Of a DNA stretch of 19,685 nucleotides, positions 2,694 through 19,685 are shown piece by piece. Position numbers and translations under genes: made by a program. Every line of letters starts with the position of its first letter. The stretch's first letter is position 1. This DNA is from a virus. Its lineage: Duplodnaviria > Heunggongvirae > Uroviricota > Caudoviricetes. The DNA is taken from IMG/VR virus record IMGVR_UViG_2695420380_000016. The stretch is one strand, 5' to 3'. The notes under the pieces are model-generated. The model was not told the DNA's origin. It worked only from the letters and a program-made list of their open reading frames with translations, and made no database searches.

Positions 2694-3446
2694 TTATCTC
2701 GTCACCTTTCTCAATTGTGCTTCAGCGTAAGATTCCTCCTGCCAGCACTTTGTAACCAGTTTATCAATGACATTTGCATATCCTTTATACCACTGATAAT
2801 CACTCAGGTCTGGTACCAGCTTCTGGACATGATGCCGCGCCAGTGTGGTTGGTAAACGACTAAACCGTTTTCCATTGCAACGCCCACAAATCTTATAAAC
2901 AGGTGTGCCATGAAGCCGGGTCCTTTTTTCATCCAGGACAATACCTTTACCCTTACACCCTCTGCACGCTGTGCTGACTTCTCCCTTACCATGGCAATGC
3001 TGACATAGTTCCTTCACCCACTCTTCTTTGATAACAGATTCCCCGCTTCTGGAGTGTTTCACCACTTCGAGCAATACATTATGAAATCCAGTACCAGCAC
3101 AATGCTCACAACGAGCCTTACTTGCCGCAGACCTGGAATAATCAGCAAAGGCAAAATTCACAAGGTAAGGAATAATCTGTAGCCGGGTTTCTTCACTCAA
3201 TTTATTCAATGTCGGGTTATCCAGTGCCATCGCGTAATTGAGCAGACCTTCAATCGCAAACTGAGGATCCTGAACACCAACTTTTGCCAGGAATAAGGCA
3301 AACCCAAGCGGTGCTTTCGACTGCACCATCCCCTGCGCAGCCATCACATCCGTAATCGTTAAACCACCAGAGCCTGTCGCCGGTGCGTCATCACTCAATT
3401 TTGGAGATTTTGGGGAGTAATATTTTGGTAAGGCTTCAAGGTTCAT
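2694..3446 (-). CDS. late-gene antitermination protein Q (phage 82 / QuuQ type)
   Basis: 250 aa with Cys/His clusters (CEHCAGTG, CQHCHGKGEVSTACRGCKGKG, CGRCNGKR). Sits between the DUF968 gene and the promoter-terminator module. Size matches remembered Qin QuuQ. SD GGAG upstream. Confidence 0.75.
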   Translation of the reverse strand: MNLEALPKYYSPKSPKLSDDAPATGSGGLTITDVMAAQGMVQSKAPLGFALFLAKVGVQDPQFAIEGLLNYAMALDNPTLNKLSEETRLQIIPYLVNFAFADYSRSAASKARCEHCAGTGFHNVLLEVVKHSRSGESVIKEEWVKELCQHCHGKGEVSTACRGCKGKGIVLDEKRTRLHGTPVYKICGRCNGKRFSRLPTTLARHHVQKLVPDLSDYQWYKGYANVIDKLVTKCWQEESYAEAQLRKVTR

Positions 3447-8425: not shown

Positions 8426-9036
8426 GCGTTAGTTTCTCCACAACCAGAAGCAATCGACGCCACGACGCCCGGAGCTGCACACTCGCGGGCGTCATTACTT
8501 TCTGAAACGCAAAAAATTTTGTAGACAAGTGCTGCATGCTCCTGCAGCTTCGAAATTGAGAGGTACAGCTCGTCGTTAATTGCTGTCTTCTCATGCGGTT
8601 CCACTACACCGTCTTCGATTGCCGAACGAATCTGTTTTGAATAACTGCCGATCTGTTCAATGACTTCCAGTAAACGCTGGTTAATATCGGCATTGTCCAC
8701 ATCCTCGACGTCAGGAAGAGACACAAAGACGCCATTTGCAGACTGCGCCACAGCGTCAGCAATGAAGTGAGTGCCACCAGCACGTTGTAAAATCATTGCC
8801 CATCCCAGCGGGAAAATCTGATCGCCATCGGCACGAAGGCGGTTAAATAATGCGTTCTCTGTTACATCCAGCCAGTCAGCTGCTTCAGCGTAACCACCCG
8901 GCAACGCTGCGATAGTTTTTCTGACAGCTTTCACGTACCACTCAGGCTGTTTTTCTACTTTCCAGTGATACTTACCCACGGTTAGCCTCATCGTTCTGTG
9001 GTTTCTGTTAATCGATTTATCCATTAGATTTTTCAT
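8422..9036 (-). CDS. CII-like / CP76-type phage regulatory protein (start uncertain)
   Basis: Positioned immediately after the cro-like gene. Length and position fit lambdoid CII-like/CP76 regulators. Track ORF extends to 9093, overlapping cro by 76 nt; internal Met codons at 9036 and 9024 are more plausible starts. None has a clear SD. Confidence 0.5.
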
Positions 9037-9217
9037 AAAGCTCAGGTTTAAATGGCAACCGTCCGCAAGTTCTATATGCTGCTTCTGCTGCACGTCCTTT
9101 TGGAATTAACTGGCCCGGACGGTTTCGCCACTGATAAACGGCCTCAGTTGTTATGCCGAAAAAAGCAGCAACTTTCTCAATACTGCCGAAGTAGCTTTCG
9201 ATATCGTCAGTTGTCAT
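9017..9217 (-). CDS. Cro-like repressor, DicC type
   Basis: 66 aa: ...[56 protein letters not shown] resembles remembered DicC (YFGS..KLAQAAGI....Y.W......P.GRA). Divergent from the repressor gene. SD GGAGGG upstream. Confidence 0.7.
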   Translation of the reverse strand: MTTDDIESYFGSIEKVAAFFGITTEAVYQWRNRPGQLIPKGRAAEAAYRTCGRLPFKPELYEKSNG

Positions 9218-9315: not shown

Positions 9316-9942
9316 ATGGAAACGGTTGGTCAGCGTATAAAAGCTCTGAGAAGGGTTACCAGAACGTCCCAGAAAGAATTGGGTAAATTTTGTGGGGTAA
9401 GTGACGTTGCTGTGGGGTACTGGGAAAAAGACATCAATGTCCCTGGCGGGGAAGCACTTTCGAAATTAGCGAAGTTCTTTAATACGTCAATAGATTACAT
9501 TCTTTATGGTGCTGAGTTTGAAGGCAAACTAGTCACAAACATGCGCAGAGTTCCTGTAATTTCGTGGGTTCAGGCTGGGCAGTTTACTGAGTGCAGGGCA
9601 GCAGAAGTGTTTAGTGAAGTGGACAAGTGGGTAGATACATCTTTAAAGATTGGTGATAACTCATTTGCATTAGAAGTTAAAGGCGACTCCATGACTAATC
9701 CTAATGGCCTCCCAACAATACCAGAAGGTGCAACAGTGATTGTAGATCCTGATGCAGAACCTCGTCATGGAAAAATAGTCATTGCTCGACTTGATGGAAC
9801 GAACGAAGCTACAGTAAAAAAATTAGTCATCGATGGTCCTCAAAAGTTTTTAGTGCCATTAAATCCACGGTATCCCAACATCCCAATCAATGGTAATTGC
9901 CTGATCATTGGTGTAGTCAAAGGAGTTCAATACGAACTCTAG
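9316..9942 (+). CDS. CI-type prophage repressor (HTH_XRE N-terminus, S24 LexA-like peptidase C-terminus)
   Basis: 208 aa. N-terminal HTH (QKELGKFCGVSDVAVGYWEKD). Ala-Gly autocleavage site (VQAGQF). Catalytic Ser in GDSM and Lys in TVKKLV, as in lambda CI and LexA. Confidence 0.9.
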   Translation: METVGQRIKALRRVTRTSQKELGKFCGVSDVAVGYWEKDINVPGGEALSKLAKFFNTSIDYILYGAEFEGKLVTNMRRVPVISWVQAGQFTECRAAEVFSEVDKWVDTSLKIGDNSFALEVKGDSMTNPNGLPTIPEGATVIVDPDAEPRHGKIVIARLDGTNEATVKKLVIDGPQKFLVPLNPRYPNIPINGNCLIIGVVKGVQYEL

Positions 9943-9964: not shown

Positions 9965-9997
9965 CACCAAACTAAGAAAAGTTTGGTGTTTCCTCTT
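9965..9997 (+). terminator. hairpin downstream of cI (candidate terminator; also carries the operator-like motif)
   Basis: CACCAAAC-taagaaaa-GTTTGGTG followed by TTTCCTCTT. The 8-bp stem contains AAACTAAG. Confidence 0.4.
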
Positions 9998-10105
9998 GCC
10001 TTAAAAACTAAGTTAAGTTAGATTTAATATCAAAGATAACGAACAGGCAGGACGCCCACAAAGTAGCCTCCTGGGGCAAATGAAGTCCAGGATGATTCGT
10101 TAGCA

Positions 10106-10131
10106 ACAAAAAAGCGCCCTATAGGACGCTT
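10106..10131 (-). terminator. intrinsic terminator for the minus-strand 173-aa gene
   Basis: Minus strand reads GCGTCCTATAGGGCGC followed by TTTTTTGTTGC: 6-bp stem with one G-U pair and a U6 tract, about 42 nt after the stop at 10173. Confidence 0.55.
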
Positions 10132-10172
10132 CGATCTTTAACAATCTGGGTATCATCCAACCAATGCAAGAT

Positions 10173-10694
10173 TTAAGGAATCCAAGGCGAATTCAGATCT
10201 CGCCCCGACTCACGTAATGATCTTGGTCGTTCGTACATCGGATTTTTTTCCATAAGAAATTTATTTTCACAGTGAAGGCAACGGCTTGTAAGAAAATGAG
10301 AAGTTTTACCTACTGGAAGCGGATGAAGTATCGATTTTATATTTTTGGAATAACAAAGTGGGCACAGATGCACAGTTATTTCTTTTCCACTCACAATTTC
10401 ATTTTTAGAGTAAACAAAAGCACCAGAGTCAAGCTGATCAAGGACATATCCTTCTACCTTGGCACAAAAATCTTCAAACTCTGCAATTTTTGCTTTGAGA
10501 TGCATCACCTCTTCATCACGAAGGCGGATCGCATCGCCAAGAGAGAAGCATTCTGCCTGAAGCGTGATTAGTTTGTTCTGGAGTTCAATGGTTGCAGCTT
10601 TAACTTCTGCATCCGTTTTCGCGTCATTAATAACCTTAGCAAGACCGGCAGTCTCCTTTATAGCAGCCATAGCCGCAGACAGTTCAGCTATCAC
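10173..10694 (-). CDS. hypothetical coiled-coil / zinc-ribbon protein (moron between cI and the early operon)
   Basis: 173-aa ORF on the strand opposite to both neighbours. Markedly AT-rich compared with flanks (by eye). N-terminal heptad-like helix (ATIELQNKLITLQAECFSLGDAIRLRDEEVMHLKAKIAEFEDF). C-terminal CPLC...CLHC. Own terminator. Start is GTG at 10694 with no clear SD; ATG 10673 is an alternative. Confidence 0.55.
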   Translation of the reverse strand: MIAELSAAMAAIKETAGLAKVINDAKTDAEVKAATIELQNKLITLQAECFSLGDAIRLRDEEVMHLKAKIAEFEDFCAKVEGYVLDQLDSGAFVYSKNEIVSGKEITVHLCPLCYSKNIKSILHPLPVGKTSHFLTSRCLHCENKFLMEKNPMYERPRSLRESGRDLNSPWIP

Positions 10695-10981
10695 GTTGAA
10701 TACTCAGCTAGTTGTTGGGGGTATCCAGATTAACCAAATCCTTGTTGTTGGGGAATAACCAGGTCCACCTCGCCTGATGTGGCTAAAAGCAGGCACATAA
10801 CAGCTAAGTATTTTCAACCAGAGAGAATCCTTAGCGTTGTGGTGAATGCGGCTCAGCGCACGCGGGTTAAGGTTGAGGCTGACAGTCGACCTTCTGTGGA
10901 TACCCACCCGTCTGGTGTACAACCTTCGCCAGGCACCGGGAGGCACCCGGCACCACAACTTTATGCTGTGTGTAGTCTTGG

Positions 10982-11033
10982 CGGTACCAGCTTGTACCCT
11001 TGCTTCCGGCTGGTACCGTACTTTTTACAAAAC
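10982..11033 (+). terminator. strong stem-loop plus T-run in the early-operon leader (terminator and/or 3' end of a small RNA)
   Basis: CGGTACCAGC (10982-10991) pairs perfectly with GCTGGTACCG (11009-11018) around a 17-nt loop, followed by TACTTTTTAC. Confidence 0.4.
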
Positions 11034-11163
11034 AGAGAAGAGCATCATCGGACGACGGGCTCATAACCCAATCCATCCGGGCGGCTGCCACCGCAGGTGT
11101 TCTTCTCTGTTTTGTGGAGAAACCAACCGACCTTGCAGGGTCGATATGATGAGGAGCAGCAAA

Positions 11164-11526
11164 ATGGCTAGCGAACGCAGTACTGATGTGCAGGCATTTA
11201 TCGGGGAGCTGGACGGCGGCGTATTTGAAACCAAAATCGGCGCTGTTCTCAGTGAAGTCGCTTCCGGTGTGATGAACACGAAAACCAAAGGTAAGGTCTC
11301 GCTCAACCTGGAAATCGAACCGTTTGATGAGAACCGTGTGAAAATCAAACACAAACTCTCATATGTTCGCCCGACTAACCGCGGGAAAATTTCCGAAGAA
11401 GACACCACCGAAACGCCGATGTATGTCAATCGCGGTGGTCGCCTGACTATTCTGCAGGAAGACCAGGGACAATTACTGACTCTTGCCGGTGAACCTGACG
11501 GAAAACTCCGCGCAGCAGGTCGTTAA
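11164..11526 (+). CDS. YfdP-like hypothetical protein (120 aa)
   Basis: Internal ATG at 11164 is preceded by GAGGAG at ideal spacing. The upstream in-frame extension of the track ORF (from 10846) has no RBS and lies in stop-poor GC-rich sequence. The 120/274/178/120-aa size series matches remembered CPS-53 YfdP/Q/R/S. Confidence 0.6.
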   Translation: MASERSTDVQAFIGELDGGVFETKIGAVLSEVASGVMNTKTKGKVSLNLEIEPFDENRVKIKHKLSYVRPTNRGKISEEDTTETPMYVNRGGRLTILQEDQGQLLTLAGEPDGKLRAAGR

Positions 11527-11592: not shown

Positions 11593-12417
11593 ATGTCTCA
11601 GAACTTAGACGCAACCGCAATTAATCAAATCCATGCCCTTATTTCTGCTCAGGGTGTTAATGAAATTATCAGTAAGATTGGTGCCGATGCTGTGGCATTG
11701 CCTGAGAATTTCCGCATTCATGATCTGGAAAAATTTAATTTAAATCGCTTCCGTTTCCGTGGTGCGCTTTCCACTGCCAGCATCGATGACTTTACCCGTT
11801 ATTCTAAAGATCTTGCAGATGAAGGCACCCGCTGCTTTATCGATACCGATAATATGCGAGCCGTCAGTGTGCTTAACCTGGGTACTATTGGTGAACCAGG
11901 TCACGCAGATAACACCGCCACACTCAAACTGAAAAAGACAGCACCGTTCTCTGCTCTGTTGTCTGTTAATGGCGAGCGTAACTCCCAGAAGTCACTGGCA
12001 GAATGGATTGAAGACTGGGCCGACTACCTTGTGGGCTTTGATGCTAATGGTGACGCTATTCAGGCAACAAAAGCGGCTGCGGCGGTCCGTAAAATCACGA
12101 TTGAAGCAAACCAGACCGCTGATTTTGAAGATAATGACTTCAGCGGCAAACGCTCCCTGATGGAGTCTGTCGAAGCGAAGACCAAAGATATTATGCCAGT
12201 GGCATTTGAATTTAAATGCGTTCCGTTTGAAGGTCTGAAAGAACGTCCATTTAAATTACGCCTCAGCATTATCACTGGCGATCGTCCTGTACTGGTTCTG
12301 CGCATTATTCAGCTGGAAGCAGTGCAGGAAGAAATGGCTAACGAATTTCGTGATCTGCTTGTTGAGAAATTCAAAGACAGCAAAGTAGAAACCTTTATTG
12401 GTACTTTCACCGCCTGA
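11593..12417 (+). CDS. YfdQ-like protein (DUF2303-type, 274 aa)
   Basis: 274-aa ORF with SD GAGGA upstream. Size and neighbours match YfdQ. Family name is from memory. Confidence 0.7.
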
Positions 12418-12451: not shown

Positions 12452-12545
12452 ATGGAAACGTAATTAACTCAATAATCGCCGGATGGTGAGGGTTTCCTTT
12501 TACCCGAATTCAGCGCGGTGCAGCGCATATAACGTGGAGAACAAA

Positions 12546-13082
12546 ATGTCATTTATTAAAACTTTTTCCGGGAAGCATTTTTATTATGACAGGATAAATA
12601 AAGACAACATCGATATTAACGATATCGCGGTTTCCCTTTCAAATATCTGTCGCTTTGCTGGTCATCTTTCACACTTCTACAGCGTTGCCCAACATGCGGT
12701 GCTTTGCAGCCAGCTGGTACCGGAGGAGTTTGCTTTTGAAGCGTTAATGCATGATGCAACAGAAGCGTATTGCCAGGACATCCCCGCACCACTGAAACGC
12801 CTTCTTCCTGACTATAAACGGATGGAAGAAAAAATAGATGCCGTAATCCGTGAGAAATACGGGTTACCCCCAGTTATGAGTACGCCCGTGAAATATGCCG
12901 ATCTTATCATGCTGGCAACCGAACGCCGCGATCTCGGGCTTGATGATGGCTCTTTCTGGCCTGTACTGGAAGGCATCCCGGCAACAGAGATGTTCAACGT
13001 GATTCCACTGGCACCTGGCCATGCCTACGGGATGTTTATGGAACGTTTTAACGAGTTATCGGAGTTACGCAAATGCGCATGA
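12546..13082 (+). CDS. HD-domain phosphohydrolase, YfdR-like (5'-deoxynucleotidase family)
   Basis: 178 aa from the ATG at 12546, preceded by GGAGA. His...His-Asp signature (HLSHFYSVAQHAV...ALMHDATEAY). Track ORF start at 12483 lacks an RBS. Confidence 0.75.
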   Translation: MSFIKTFSGKHFYYDRINKDNIDINDIAVSLSNICRFAGHLSHFYSVAQHAVLCSQLVPEEFAFEALMHDATEAYCQDIPAPLKRLLPDYKRMEEKIDAVIREKYGLPPVMSTPVKYADLIMLATERRDLGLDDGSFWPVLEGIPATEMFNVIPLAPGHAYGMFMERFNELSELRKCA

Positions 13083-18461: not shown

Positions 18462-19685
18462 TCATTTCGAGCCTGAACGAGTACAAGTAACAATCGATTC
18501 AACTCTCTCCCACCATGCCTGGTAGGCTTTACGCTGTTCTTCTAGATAATCACTCTTGTCATAAACTTGCCATACACCTGGCAGTTTATGACCGAGCATT
18601 ATTTCAGCAATATGAGGCGCAGTAAGATCAGAAAAGTTTGTTCGTGCTGTTCGTCTCAAATCATGAAGAGACCAATGAGGAAATTGATACCCCAAACGCC
18701 GCCATGCGTACTGCATTAAATTGTAAGGCAGCGACTGCAATGATGTCCGACCAACTGGTTCCCTGCTTCCTTCCTTAGTAAAAAGCATATCGGAACCGTT
18801 GTTCATAGAGATAACGTATTTTATAAGCTCTTCAACCGGTTCAATAATGGGCCGCTTTAGCGGTTCGCCTGTTATATCCCCTGTCTTATGTCGTTCTGGT
18901 GGTACAGTCCATATTTTATTAATGAAATCAAAATCGTCCACCTTGGCAGTAATTAGCTCTGAACTACGGCAACCAAAATGCAGCAATAGTTTAATGAAGG
19001 CCCGGTATTTAGGAACCATTCGAGAACCATCGATCGCAGCATAAAGGATTTTAATTTCATCATGTGTCAGAAACCGTTTCTTCTGACCTTTACGGATATC
19101 CATATCTTTACCCGTGATATCCGACAGCGGGCGAGTTTCAATGAGCTTTCTCTTATACGCCCAGACATGGGCCTGCTTTGCGTTAATTAGCAATCGGTCT
19201 GCTATTGCTGGAGTCTTAGTGCTAAGAGGCTCCAGGACTTCTAACCAATCATGCAATGTAGCTGCATCGTGAGGGATATTCCCGATTTTAGAGAACAGGT
19301 GCAGCTCAAACGAGCGGAGTATCTGTTCAGAACCTTTTTTATTTTTTACACAATATGCTTCATACCAAGCACGGATCACAGATTCTACCGTCATGGCTTC
19401 AGTAGCTTTACGTTTTTCTGCCAGCTTGACCAATCGTGGATTGCGGTTTGACTCGAGTTCACCACGAAGACGGATAACTTCTTCTCTGGCCTCTTTTAGT
19501 CCAGTTGCCGGGTAAGTTCCGATATCAAGACGCTCACCTTTCCCCGCCCACTGATAACGATATTGGAACACTACGCGACCTTTCGGTGATACTCTAACAG
19601 ACAGACCATCACGATCGGATTTAACCAAAACCTTATCACGTTCCTTTCCAACAACTGAACGCAACCACGCATCAGACAGCGCCAT
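18462..19685 (-). CDS. tyrosine integrase, P4-like (DUF4102 arm-binding N-terminus plus catalytic domain)
   Basis: 407 aa. N-terminus MALSDAWLRSVVGKERDKVLVKSDRDGLSVRVSPKGRVVFQYRYQWAGKGERLDIGTYP fits the P4-family arm-binding pattern. C-terminus has catalytic-domain motifs (HDLRRTARTN..., GHKLPGVWQVYD with the Tyr). The ATG is the last three bases of the window, so upstream signals and att are outside. Confidence 0.85.
   Translation of the reverse strand: MALSDAWLRSVVGKERDKVLVKSDRDGLSVRVSPKGRVVFQYRYQWAGKGERLDIGTYPATGLKEAREEVIRLRGELESNRNPRLVKLAEKRKATEAMTVESVIRAWYEAYCVKNKKGSEQILRSFELHLFSKIGNIPHDAATLHDWLEVLEPLSTKTPAIADRLLINAKQAHVWAYKRKLIETRPLSDITGKDMDIRKGQKKRFLTHDEIKILYAAIDGSRMVPKYRAFIKLLLHFGCRSSELITAKVDDFDFINKIWTVPPERHKTGDITGEPLKRPIIEPVEELIKYVISMNNGSDMLFTKEGSREPVGRTSLQSLPYNLMQYAWRRLGYQFPHWSLHDLRRTARTNFSDLTAPHIAEIMLGHKLPGVWQVYDKSDYLEEQRKAYQAWWERVESIVTCTRSGSK

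Follow-up and report, generated by a model that had tools for sequence, protein, structure and literature searches.

A probable terminator hairpin at the end of an STnc100/PasD-type phage leader RNA, and its relation to DicF

In this study, we analysed a hairpin on the plus strand at 10981-11028 of IMGVR_UViG_2695420380_000016, a 19,685-nt stretch of tailed-phage DNA (Caudoviricetes) that is called the window here at its full length. The original prediction had read the segment around this hairpin as a possible DicF-like small RNA in the leader of the early operon. We consider that the hairpin is probably a Rho-independent terminator, that an STnc100/PasD-type leader RNA of the early-left operon ends with it, and that it is a diverged relative of DicF. 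Our comparisons demonstrated the hairpin, its conservation, the structure and family of the domain in front of it, the series of elements leading toward DicF, and the genomic position. The element belongs, in an unusual arrangement, to known small-RNA families, and it is not a new kind of system.

The terminator hairpin and the RNA that it ends

Folded as RNA, the segment 10960-11035 forms a 12-bp stem (10981-10992 with 11008-11019), a 15-nt loop (10993-11007) and the tail ACUUUUUAC, in which the U-run lies at 11022-11026. The two arms of the stem are GCGGUACCAGC and GCUGGUACCGU. The fold has an energy of -28.4 kcal/mol and a z of -4.17, and 0 of 200 dinucleotide shuffles equalled it. The sequence pieces quoted in the original prediction are present, TTGGCGGTACCAGC at 10978-10991 and GCTGGTACCGTACTTTTT at 11009-11026, and the 3' terminator hairpin that it described was confirmed in both the stem and the U-tail. 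A consensus scan that allowed loops of up to 8 nt reported neither a promoter nor a terminator at the hairpin site; the terminator was missed because its 15-nt loop exceeds that limit. The hairpin is kept in thousands of E. coli genomes and in many phages, and the pairing of its stem is preserved in e14, in mEp460 and in about 25 viral-contig variants through wobble pairs and compensatory changes. Unrelated terminator hairpins occupy the same site in ST64B and others.

The stem is preceded by a linker, UUUAUGCUGUGUGUAGUCUUG, at 10960-10980 on the plus strand, which is unpaired or weakly paired in the folds and represents a segment resembling the 5' part of DicF. This linker is common to ST64B-type and Rac-type elements, even where the hairpin that follows differs. 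That it is retained next to unlike hairpins, and also in the Rac element, suggests selection beyond termination. The linker may serve as a seed, and it may be an entry site for RNase E (AC/UUU).

The hairpin is the last part of a larger RNA. The STnc100 model of Rfam (RF02076, gathering score 47 bits) matched the plus strand at 10806-11028 with 38.5 bits over model positions 1-206 of 206, with an E value of 7e-7 in the local search and of 2e-5 for the whole window. This match, which marks out the STnc100-like RNA over its full extent, stops exactly at the U-tail of the hairpin, and therefore the hairpin is the terminator of an STnc100-type RNA. The original prediction missed that the hairpin terminates a larger RNA of the STnc100/PasD type. 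The invariant core motifs of the family, UGGUGAAU and CACCGGGAGGCACCCGGCACCA, are present in the window at 10840-10847 and 10933-10954, the latter being a 22-mer that begins with CACCGGG. The window also contains the exact 20-mer CCGGGAGGCACCCGGCACCA, which recurs in more than 120 viral contigs.

In the literature, STnc100 is a prophage small RNA whose function is not established. The PasD RNAs, with PasD1 and PasD2 in enteropathogenic E. coli (EPEC), are Hfq-dependent small RNAs validated by Northern blotting (PMC8550237), and STnc100/EcOnc27 is an Hfq-associated and likewise Northern-validated family member with many partners (PMC12711010). STnc100 overlaps the Hfq-binding RNA EcOnc27/sRNA103, located 75 nt downstream of stx2B, and a common origin of PasD and STnc100 has been proposed (bioRxiv 10.64898/2026.05.13.724894).

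The body of the window RNA is a pseudoknotted core domain of ~125 nt at 10836-10959 on the plus strand, which was defined by the minimum free energy (MFE) fold and by per-sequence helix searches. It consists of the closing helix P1 (10836-10844 with 10951-10959), the hairpin P2 (~10847-10863), the 8-bp helix P4 (10910-10917 with 10927-10934), the hairpin P5 (10936-10950, CCGGG-AGGCA-CCCGG) and the 7-bp pseudoknot helix P3 (10869-10875 with 10920-10926), whose second arm lies inside the loop of P4. The stem of the terminator begins 22 nt after P1. The MFE fold of the window RNA yields P1, P2, P4, P5 and the terminator, with a z of -3.2.

To describe the family, we took 290 nt around each exact copy of the 20-mer, which gave 114 distinct sequences in 48 clusters. 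All clusters have in common an architecture that is defined in this analysis: the closing helix P1, the hairpins P2, P4 and P5, and pairing between the P4 loop and the segment directly after P2 (P3). P1 pairs (A/G)UGGUG with CACCA(U/C), showing A-U/G-C covariation. P3 and P4 were detected in the window and in most of the 48 clusters. In 39 of 47 clusters P3 was 6 bp or longer, and it is formed by 32 distinct arms with a constant start position of the 5' arm. At a level of at least 5.5 bp, P3 was found in 81% of pairings within the same sequence and in 14% of pairings between sequences (Mann-Whitney p 1e-19). The arms of P4 formed a mean of 6.8 bp within their own sequence and 3.2 bp in cross pairs. 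The invariance of P5 is partly a product of the way in which the sequence set was gathered, namely by the 20-mer; the copy in Qin carries a compensatory P5, CCUGG/CCAGG. When MAFFT and RNAalifold were applied to 32 domain sequences, P1 and P5 alone were recovered, because the variable middle was misaligned and P3 and P4 were thus missed; these two helices were tested by the per-sequence helix searches with shuffled-loop and cross-sequence controls. The pseudoknot fold of the STnc100/PasD family is backed by covariation over 48 viral-contig clusters. This conserved fold is absent from the Rfam consensus structure of STnc100, and a recent survey of the family does not use the word "pseudoknot" in its main text.

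The window RNA shares with STnc100, PasD1-PasD2 and EcOnc27 of Salmonella, EPEC and enterohaemorrhagic E. coli (EHEC) the core motifs, P1, P2, P4, P5 and the P3 pseudoknot, and in all of them a short unpaired linker separates the domain from a terminator downstream. However, the P2 sequence of the window is of a different, GCGG..CGC type, its terminator is of the DicF type, and its score remains at 38.5 bits against the gathering score of 47. The window RNA is also located differently, downstream of the repressor in the early-left operon, and not in the late leader from Q to holin or behind stx2B as the others are.

The leader of the window is a mosaic, in which 10820-10984 matches ST64B at 88% and 10978-11060 matches Stx2c phages, mEp460 and cdtI at 93-95%. 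The linker, the hairpin and the domain recombine independently between phages. Considering this independent exchange, an alternative pairing of the riboswitch type, with the domain acting as an anti-terminator, appears unlikely from the sequences.

Relation to DicF

Rfam holds DicF as RF00039 with a gathering score of 48 bits. A scan of the window at the gathering thresholds of Rfam did not report DicF, and a cspA thermoregulator at 1476-1919 on the minus strand was the sole match. In a 181-nt search, the DicF model aligned to the window hairpin over 10967-11021 with 10.5 bits and an E value of 8.5, so that the claim fails by the condition that the original prediction had itself named, the lack of an Rfam DicF hit. 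On the sequence level, a local alignment with K-12 dicF (TTGGCGGTAyCAG-TTkTAC) showed 17 of 20 identical positions at a score of 23, in line with the claim of a DicF-like 5' arm. When the single-stranded linker was included, K-12 DicF and the window were identical at 24 of 36 positions, with 12 of 13 in the arm. The likeness spans the 5' linker and the 5' arm; the loop and the 3' arm are unlike. The 5' unpaired region and 5' arm of DicF (UUUCUGGUGAcgUUUGGCGGUAUCAG) include the seed UUUCUGGUGA, which is only partly retained in the window (UGCUGUGUGUA).

The DicF match of the window hairpin, standing alone, is weak. A shuffled DicF on average reaches the score of 23 somewhere in the 19.7-kb window, and when the comparison is restricted to the 76-nt segment, the same score is attained by 4 of 1000 shuffles. 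The best DicF-like local match of the whole window lies elsewhere, at 18681-18704 on the minus strand (TGGCGGCGTTTGGGGTATCAATTT, 24 nt, score 28). This match is inside an integrase open reading frame (ORF). We took it as chance, and it illustrates the ease with which DicF-like words arise.

The likeness to DicF goes beyond chance because relatives in e14 and Rac supply intermediates. Scored by the DicF model, these elements form a series from Qin DicF (76.7 bits) through the element of Rac-SA53 (41.1 bits, E 7e-8) and that of e14 (28.5 bits, E 1e-4) to the window (10.5 bits). The hairpin of e14, with the arms GGCGGUACCAG and CUGGUACCGCC, aligns to DicF over its full length with a score of 37 against a null of 16 +/- 2. 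The Rac-SA53 element occupies the position of DicF, upstream of kilR, and it is identical to the window in 21 of 21 nt across linker and arm (UGCUGUGUGUAGUCUUGGCGG). The arms of the Rac stem, GGCGGCAUCAG and CUGAUGUCCGCC, differ from those of the window stem by compensatory changes, which agrees with the earlier statement that the stem is upheld by different but complementary bases. The terminator at the same site in ST64B instead shares the central CCGUGAC and the 3' end of DicF. In Qin and Rac, the DicF-type element adjoins the same pseudoknot domain that precedes the hairpin in the window.

The original prediction had itself allowed that the resemblance could be coincidental. This caution was justified for the hairpin taken alone, where shuffled sequences do as well across the window, but it does not extend to the e14 element with its full-length alignment and 28.5 bits. 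That both the hairpin and its likeness to DicF arose by chance in a GC-rich intergenic region is scarcely credible, since the fold energy, the wide conservation of the hairpin among E. coli genomes and phages, the compensatory changes and the graded intermediates already contradict it. On the basis of these sequence comparisons, we regard the linker and hairpin as a diverged relative of a DicF-type module and not as a member of the DicF family in the sense of Rfam.

Qin DicF represses ftsZ, xylR and pykA. A true orthologue of DicF in the window would be a 50-70-nt RNA that blocks the translation of ftsZ and leads to filamentation. DicF and the window RNA appear to have in common a 5' unpaired segment and the arm UUGGCGGUAyCAG, and in both a U-tailed terminator hairpin is formed; both lie in an operon on the repressor side of the immunity region, both adjoin the pseudoknot domain, and Rac and e14 supply intermediates between them that reach up to 41 bits. 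However, the window fails the DicF model (10.5 against 48 bits), its loop and 3' arm are unrelated in sequence, so that the segment predicted in DicF to pair with ftsZ (nt 29-54) is replaced, and it shows no demonstrable complementarity to ftsZ. The order is also inverted: in Qin and Rac the DicF-type element is followed by the domain and then by dicB or kilR, whereas in the window the domain comes first and the hairpin follows. The location of DicF in the dicB operon (ydfABC-dicF-dicB) is not shared either, as the downstream genes of the window are yfdP, yfdQ and yfdR, without dicB. In duplex predictions with the ftsZ leader, at full length and in 26-nt windows, the window RNA performed no better than shuffles; real DicF fared alike, so this comparison is powerless. 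There is no evidence that the window RNA targets ftsZ, and we consider an orthologue of DicF at this site to be very improbable.

Position in prophages and proposed role in the early-left operon

In most clusters of the family, a sigma-70 promoter precedes the domain, with the -10 element ending ~9 nt before P1. A hairpin that resembles a terminator and has a T-rich tail follows P1 at a distance of up to 170 nt in 45 of the 48 clusters, and in many of these the distance is 25-60 nt. Among the genes sampled upstream are those for Q antiterminators of two families (PF03589, PF06323), stx2A, a transposase gene and an HNH endonuclease gene; those sampled downstream include holin genes from three families and a large ORF after stx2B, which is probably nanS-p, without confirmation by Pfam. 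Considering these promoters, terminators and Q and holin neighbours, the promoter-bearing copies are late-operon leader cassettes. They resemble the lambda 6S RNA (from PR' to tR') and StxS, in which a promoter, an RNA of ~200 nt and a terminator also lie between Q and the lysis genes. Cassettes of the lambda late-leader type are terminated in the lysogen and read through upon induction. To our knowledge, no conserved pseudoknot fold is known for the lambda 6S RNA or StxS. The window copy differs from these in lying in the early-left operon and in having no promoter of its own. As a separate observation, phage contigs L010, L021, L039, L057, L078 and others contain the domain twice on one strand, frequently at a spacing of exactly 484 nt and otherwise at spacings of 267, 492, 922 and 954 nt.

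The window belongs to a second group, which differs in P2, lacks an abutting promoter of its own and also comprises ST64B, e14, mEp460, Qin, Rac-SA53, P7 and three viral clusters. Members of this group are placed in the operon downstream of the repressor, and the position downstream of cI and the early-left promoter (PL) is conserved in ST64B, mEp460, e14 and SfV-like phages. In the K-12 Qin locus (L002), the domain copy at 2447-2587 fills the spacer between dicF and dicB, ends ~25 nt before the start codon of dicB and is unannotated in K-12; it scored 34.1 bits, below gathering. A second, degenerate domain upstream of dicF in Qin was not found (score 17 against a null of 18, and no Rfam hit). 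In Rac-SA53 (L236), a DicF-type element at 1790-1844, just below gathering, is followed by the domain at 1834-2023 (43.8 bits), which abuts kilR, and in P7 (L237) the domain at 1501-1616 abuts terB/tciB. Both kilR and dicB are genes of cell-division inhibitors. Concerning the neighbourhood, the original prediction had called it Qin-like; this is correct for the operon downstream of the repressor but not for the flanks, which resemble CPS-53, SfV and ST64B (yfdP, yfdQ, yfdR) and contain no dicB operon. In the antirepressor regions of ST64B (L004, 909-1097) and mEp460 (L005, 324-512), C4 antisense RNA and isrK were found above gathering; neither was found by Rfam in the window.

In the window, a P22-type Cro gene (9017-9217, minus strand) and an S24/HTH repressor gene (9316-9942, plus strand), both assigned by family search, are followed by PL at 9997-10025 on the plus strand, which was read from the sequence as TTGCCT-17 nt-TAGATT. 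It is overlapped by an operator repeat, AAAACTAAG..TTAG, with copies at 9969-9983 and 10002-10021 and a further two in the cro-cI spacer. PL is likely the source of transcription through the leader. Close to it, at 10039-10100 on the plus strand, lies a conserved leader RNA of ~62 nt (ACGAACAGGCAGGACGCCC ... CCAGGAUGAUUCGU, also given as ACGAACAGGCAGGACGCCC...GGAUGAUUCGU), whose exact core occurs directly after many different types of PL promoter and operator in more than 120 viral contigs. Its predicted fold comprises a closing helix and two hairpins; in one of these hairpins there are 10-11 double compensatory changes. It has CGAAC and GGAUGA in common with putL and putR of HK022. As in HK022, this is a promoter-proximal two-hairpin RNA (~65-70 nt in length for put) that starts a few nt after the start of PL, has both hairpins within a short closing helix and is found in a phage without a recognisable N; however, the overall sequence and the helix register differ. 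Terminator read-through by HK022 put depends on the zinc-binding domain of the beta' subunit of RNA polymerase. No N-like ORF was found between PL and yfdP in the ORF list or by Pfam. We infer from these put-like features and from the lack of an N-like gene in the early-left operon that put-like antitermination may be the route past the terminator, with 10039-10100 as a candidate antiterminator enabling read-through of downstream terminators. The two GGA motifs of this element would also suit CsrA sites.

The predicted PL transcript would carry, in order, the 10039-10100 element, a hairpin at 10111-10132, an antisense ORF, the domain with its terminator, a long stem-loop, a small hairpin and the ribosome-binding site (RBS) of yfdP. 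The antisense ORF (10173-10694, minus strand, 173 aa, no family assignment) is inserted between PL and the leader, and because of its orientation PL transcription would run antisense through it. The bidirectional hairpin at 10111-10132 is a strong terminator for this ORF. ST64B has no insert at this place, and mEp460 has a different one.

On this basis, we propose that the transcript starting from PL (~10000) would cross the antisense moron of 173 aa and the structured leader before reaching yfdP-yfdQ-yfdR. The hairpin would terminate transcription in vivo and end an RNA of ~195-225 nt, of which the domain 10836-10959 would be the body, and as terminator and attenuator between PL and yfdPQR it would gate the expression of the downstream early genes. 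The linker and hairpin together (10960-11028) would be a diverged copy of the mosaic module that lies behind Qin DicF. By analogy with DicF and PasD, the terminated product would bind Hfq through its hairpin and U-tail and may base-pair in trans, in which case the unpaired linker could serve as the seed. A DicF-sized 3' fragment of ~66 nt may be released by a cut in the AU-rich linker. Read-through to yfdP would probably occur by processive antitermination set upstream.

Several observations weigh against this reading. The tail reads ACUUUUU, with just five U residues in the run and with AC between them and the stem. The DicF and STnc100 matches are both under the gathering scores of Rfam. Unlike in most family members, no sigma-70 promoter abuts the domain in the window, where the best candidate matched 6/12 and was misplaced, and a discrete RNA therefore depends on PL transcription or on processing; ST64B, e14 and other early-left copies likewise have no abutting sigma-70 promoter. 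The part of DicF that pairs with the ftsZ leader in duplex prediction, formed by the loop and the 3' arm, is not kept in the window. Finally, in Qin, Rac and P7 the domain stands directly before a start codon without a terminator, which points to a cis role that the small-RNA model does not explain.

The last point, together with the lack of an own promoter, also fits a purely cis-acting attenuator, which would limit early-left transcription until antitermination and leave the terminated RNA as a by-product. The replacement of the terminator by unrelated terminators at the same site and the put-like element upstream are consistent with this possibility as well. On the contrary, the linker persists beside hairpins of different kinds as well as in the Rac element, and terminator-bearing members of the family are abundant Hfq-bound small RNAs with many partners. 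Accordingly, we regard a role confined to cis as a possible but unlikely alternative to the reading of the hairpin as the end of an STnc100/PasD-type RNA.

We also considered whether the region encodes a protein. The ORF 10846-11526 on the plus strand (226 aa) is open in the window and runs in frame into yfdP, the annotation pipeline PGAP reports a "frameshifted hypothetical protein" over this region in close relatives, and the e14 copy of a K-12-derived strain (L126, 3576-3887), upstream of xisE-intE, is annotated as the coding sequence ymfH. A YmfH-like protein or an N-terminal extension of YfdP could thus be supposed. However, relatives differ in this region by indels of 1, 4, 5 and 20 nt, mEp460 has stops in all three frames, Pfam matched nothing on the ORF upstream of yfdP, the variation tracks base pairing and not codons, and the region is a mosaic of independently exchanged modules. 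We therefore ruled out 10846-11163 as coding and hold a protein product to be extremely improbable. Likewise, ymfH is probably not a protein gene. In this e14 copy, P5 has decayed by a 1-nt deletion and a G to A change.

Downstream of the terminator, a long stem-loop with a perfect 21-bp stem (11026-11116, plus strand; -57.1 kcal/mol, z -4.3) was recognised as an inverted repeat. It starts at the end of the terminator U-tract and lies in the 5' untranslated region of yfdP. It is kept in ST64B, where a G-C pair has become A-U by a compensatory change, and in e14 and mEp460; its stem is possibly a substrate of RNase III or an element of translational control. Ahead of the yfdP RBS (GAGGAG, 11151-11156), a small hairpin, CGACCU-UGCA-GGGUCG, lies at 11128-11143 on the plus strand; at this position ST64B has a different sequence and a hairpin is still formed. 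Like the long stem, the small hairpin is preserved in ST64B, e14 and mEp460 through compensatory changes. The genes that follow on the plus strand were assigned from the RefSeq annotation of 98.5%-identical genomes and by Pfam: yfdP (11164-11526), the first gene after the leader, yfdQ (DUF2303, 11593-12417) and a yfdR-like gene (12483-13082). At the other side of the window, the cspA thermoregulator match (161 bits) includes a 71-aa csp ORF at 1543-1758 on the minus strand, and therefore a cold-shock-protein gene lies downstream of a PF03589-type Q gene (2694-3446, minus strand).

Meaning for DicF and for prophage leaders

These results indicate that DicF is not isolated and that it is one end of a series of linker-terminator modules in Qin, Rac-type, e14 and SfV/CPS-53-like prophages. 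Many PL promoters in phages without N appear to have a put-like RNA as their common partner. The same pseudoknot fold is found directly before dicB and kilR and under the K-12 "protein" gene ymfH. What the pseudoknot domain does in cis is the more interesting question.

A more speculative idea, which we consider rather unlikely at present, is that the domain and the DicF-type linker-terminator are the two halves of one widespread prophage cassette. The domain would then be a new class of cis-acting leader RNA; its sequence is invariant across phages with unrelated promoters, Q types and downstream genes, and on this idea it would presumably touch a part of the host machinery, for example RNA polymerase, Rho/NusG or the ribosome. 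DicF, PasD and STnc100 would be terminated or processed pieces of such leaders that were later recruited as small RNAs acting in trans. If this were true, K-12, for which the recent family survey listed no Pas genes, would have at least two unannotated copies of the domain, in the dicF-dicB spacer and in e14 ymfH, and three if the Rac of K-12 resembles Rac-SA53. In that case, the domain would control toxic and other early genes (dicB, kilR, tciAB, xis-int, yfdPQR) as well as late lysis operons.

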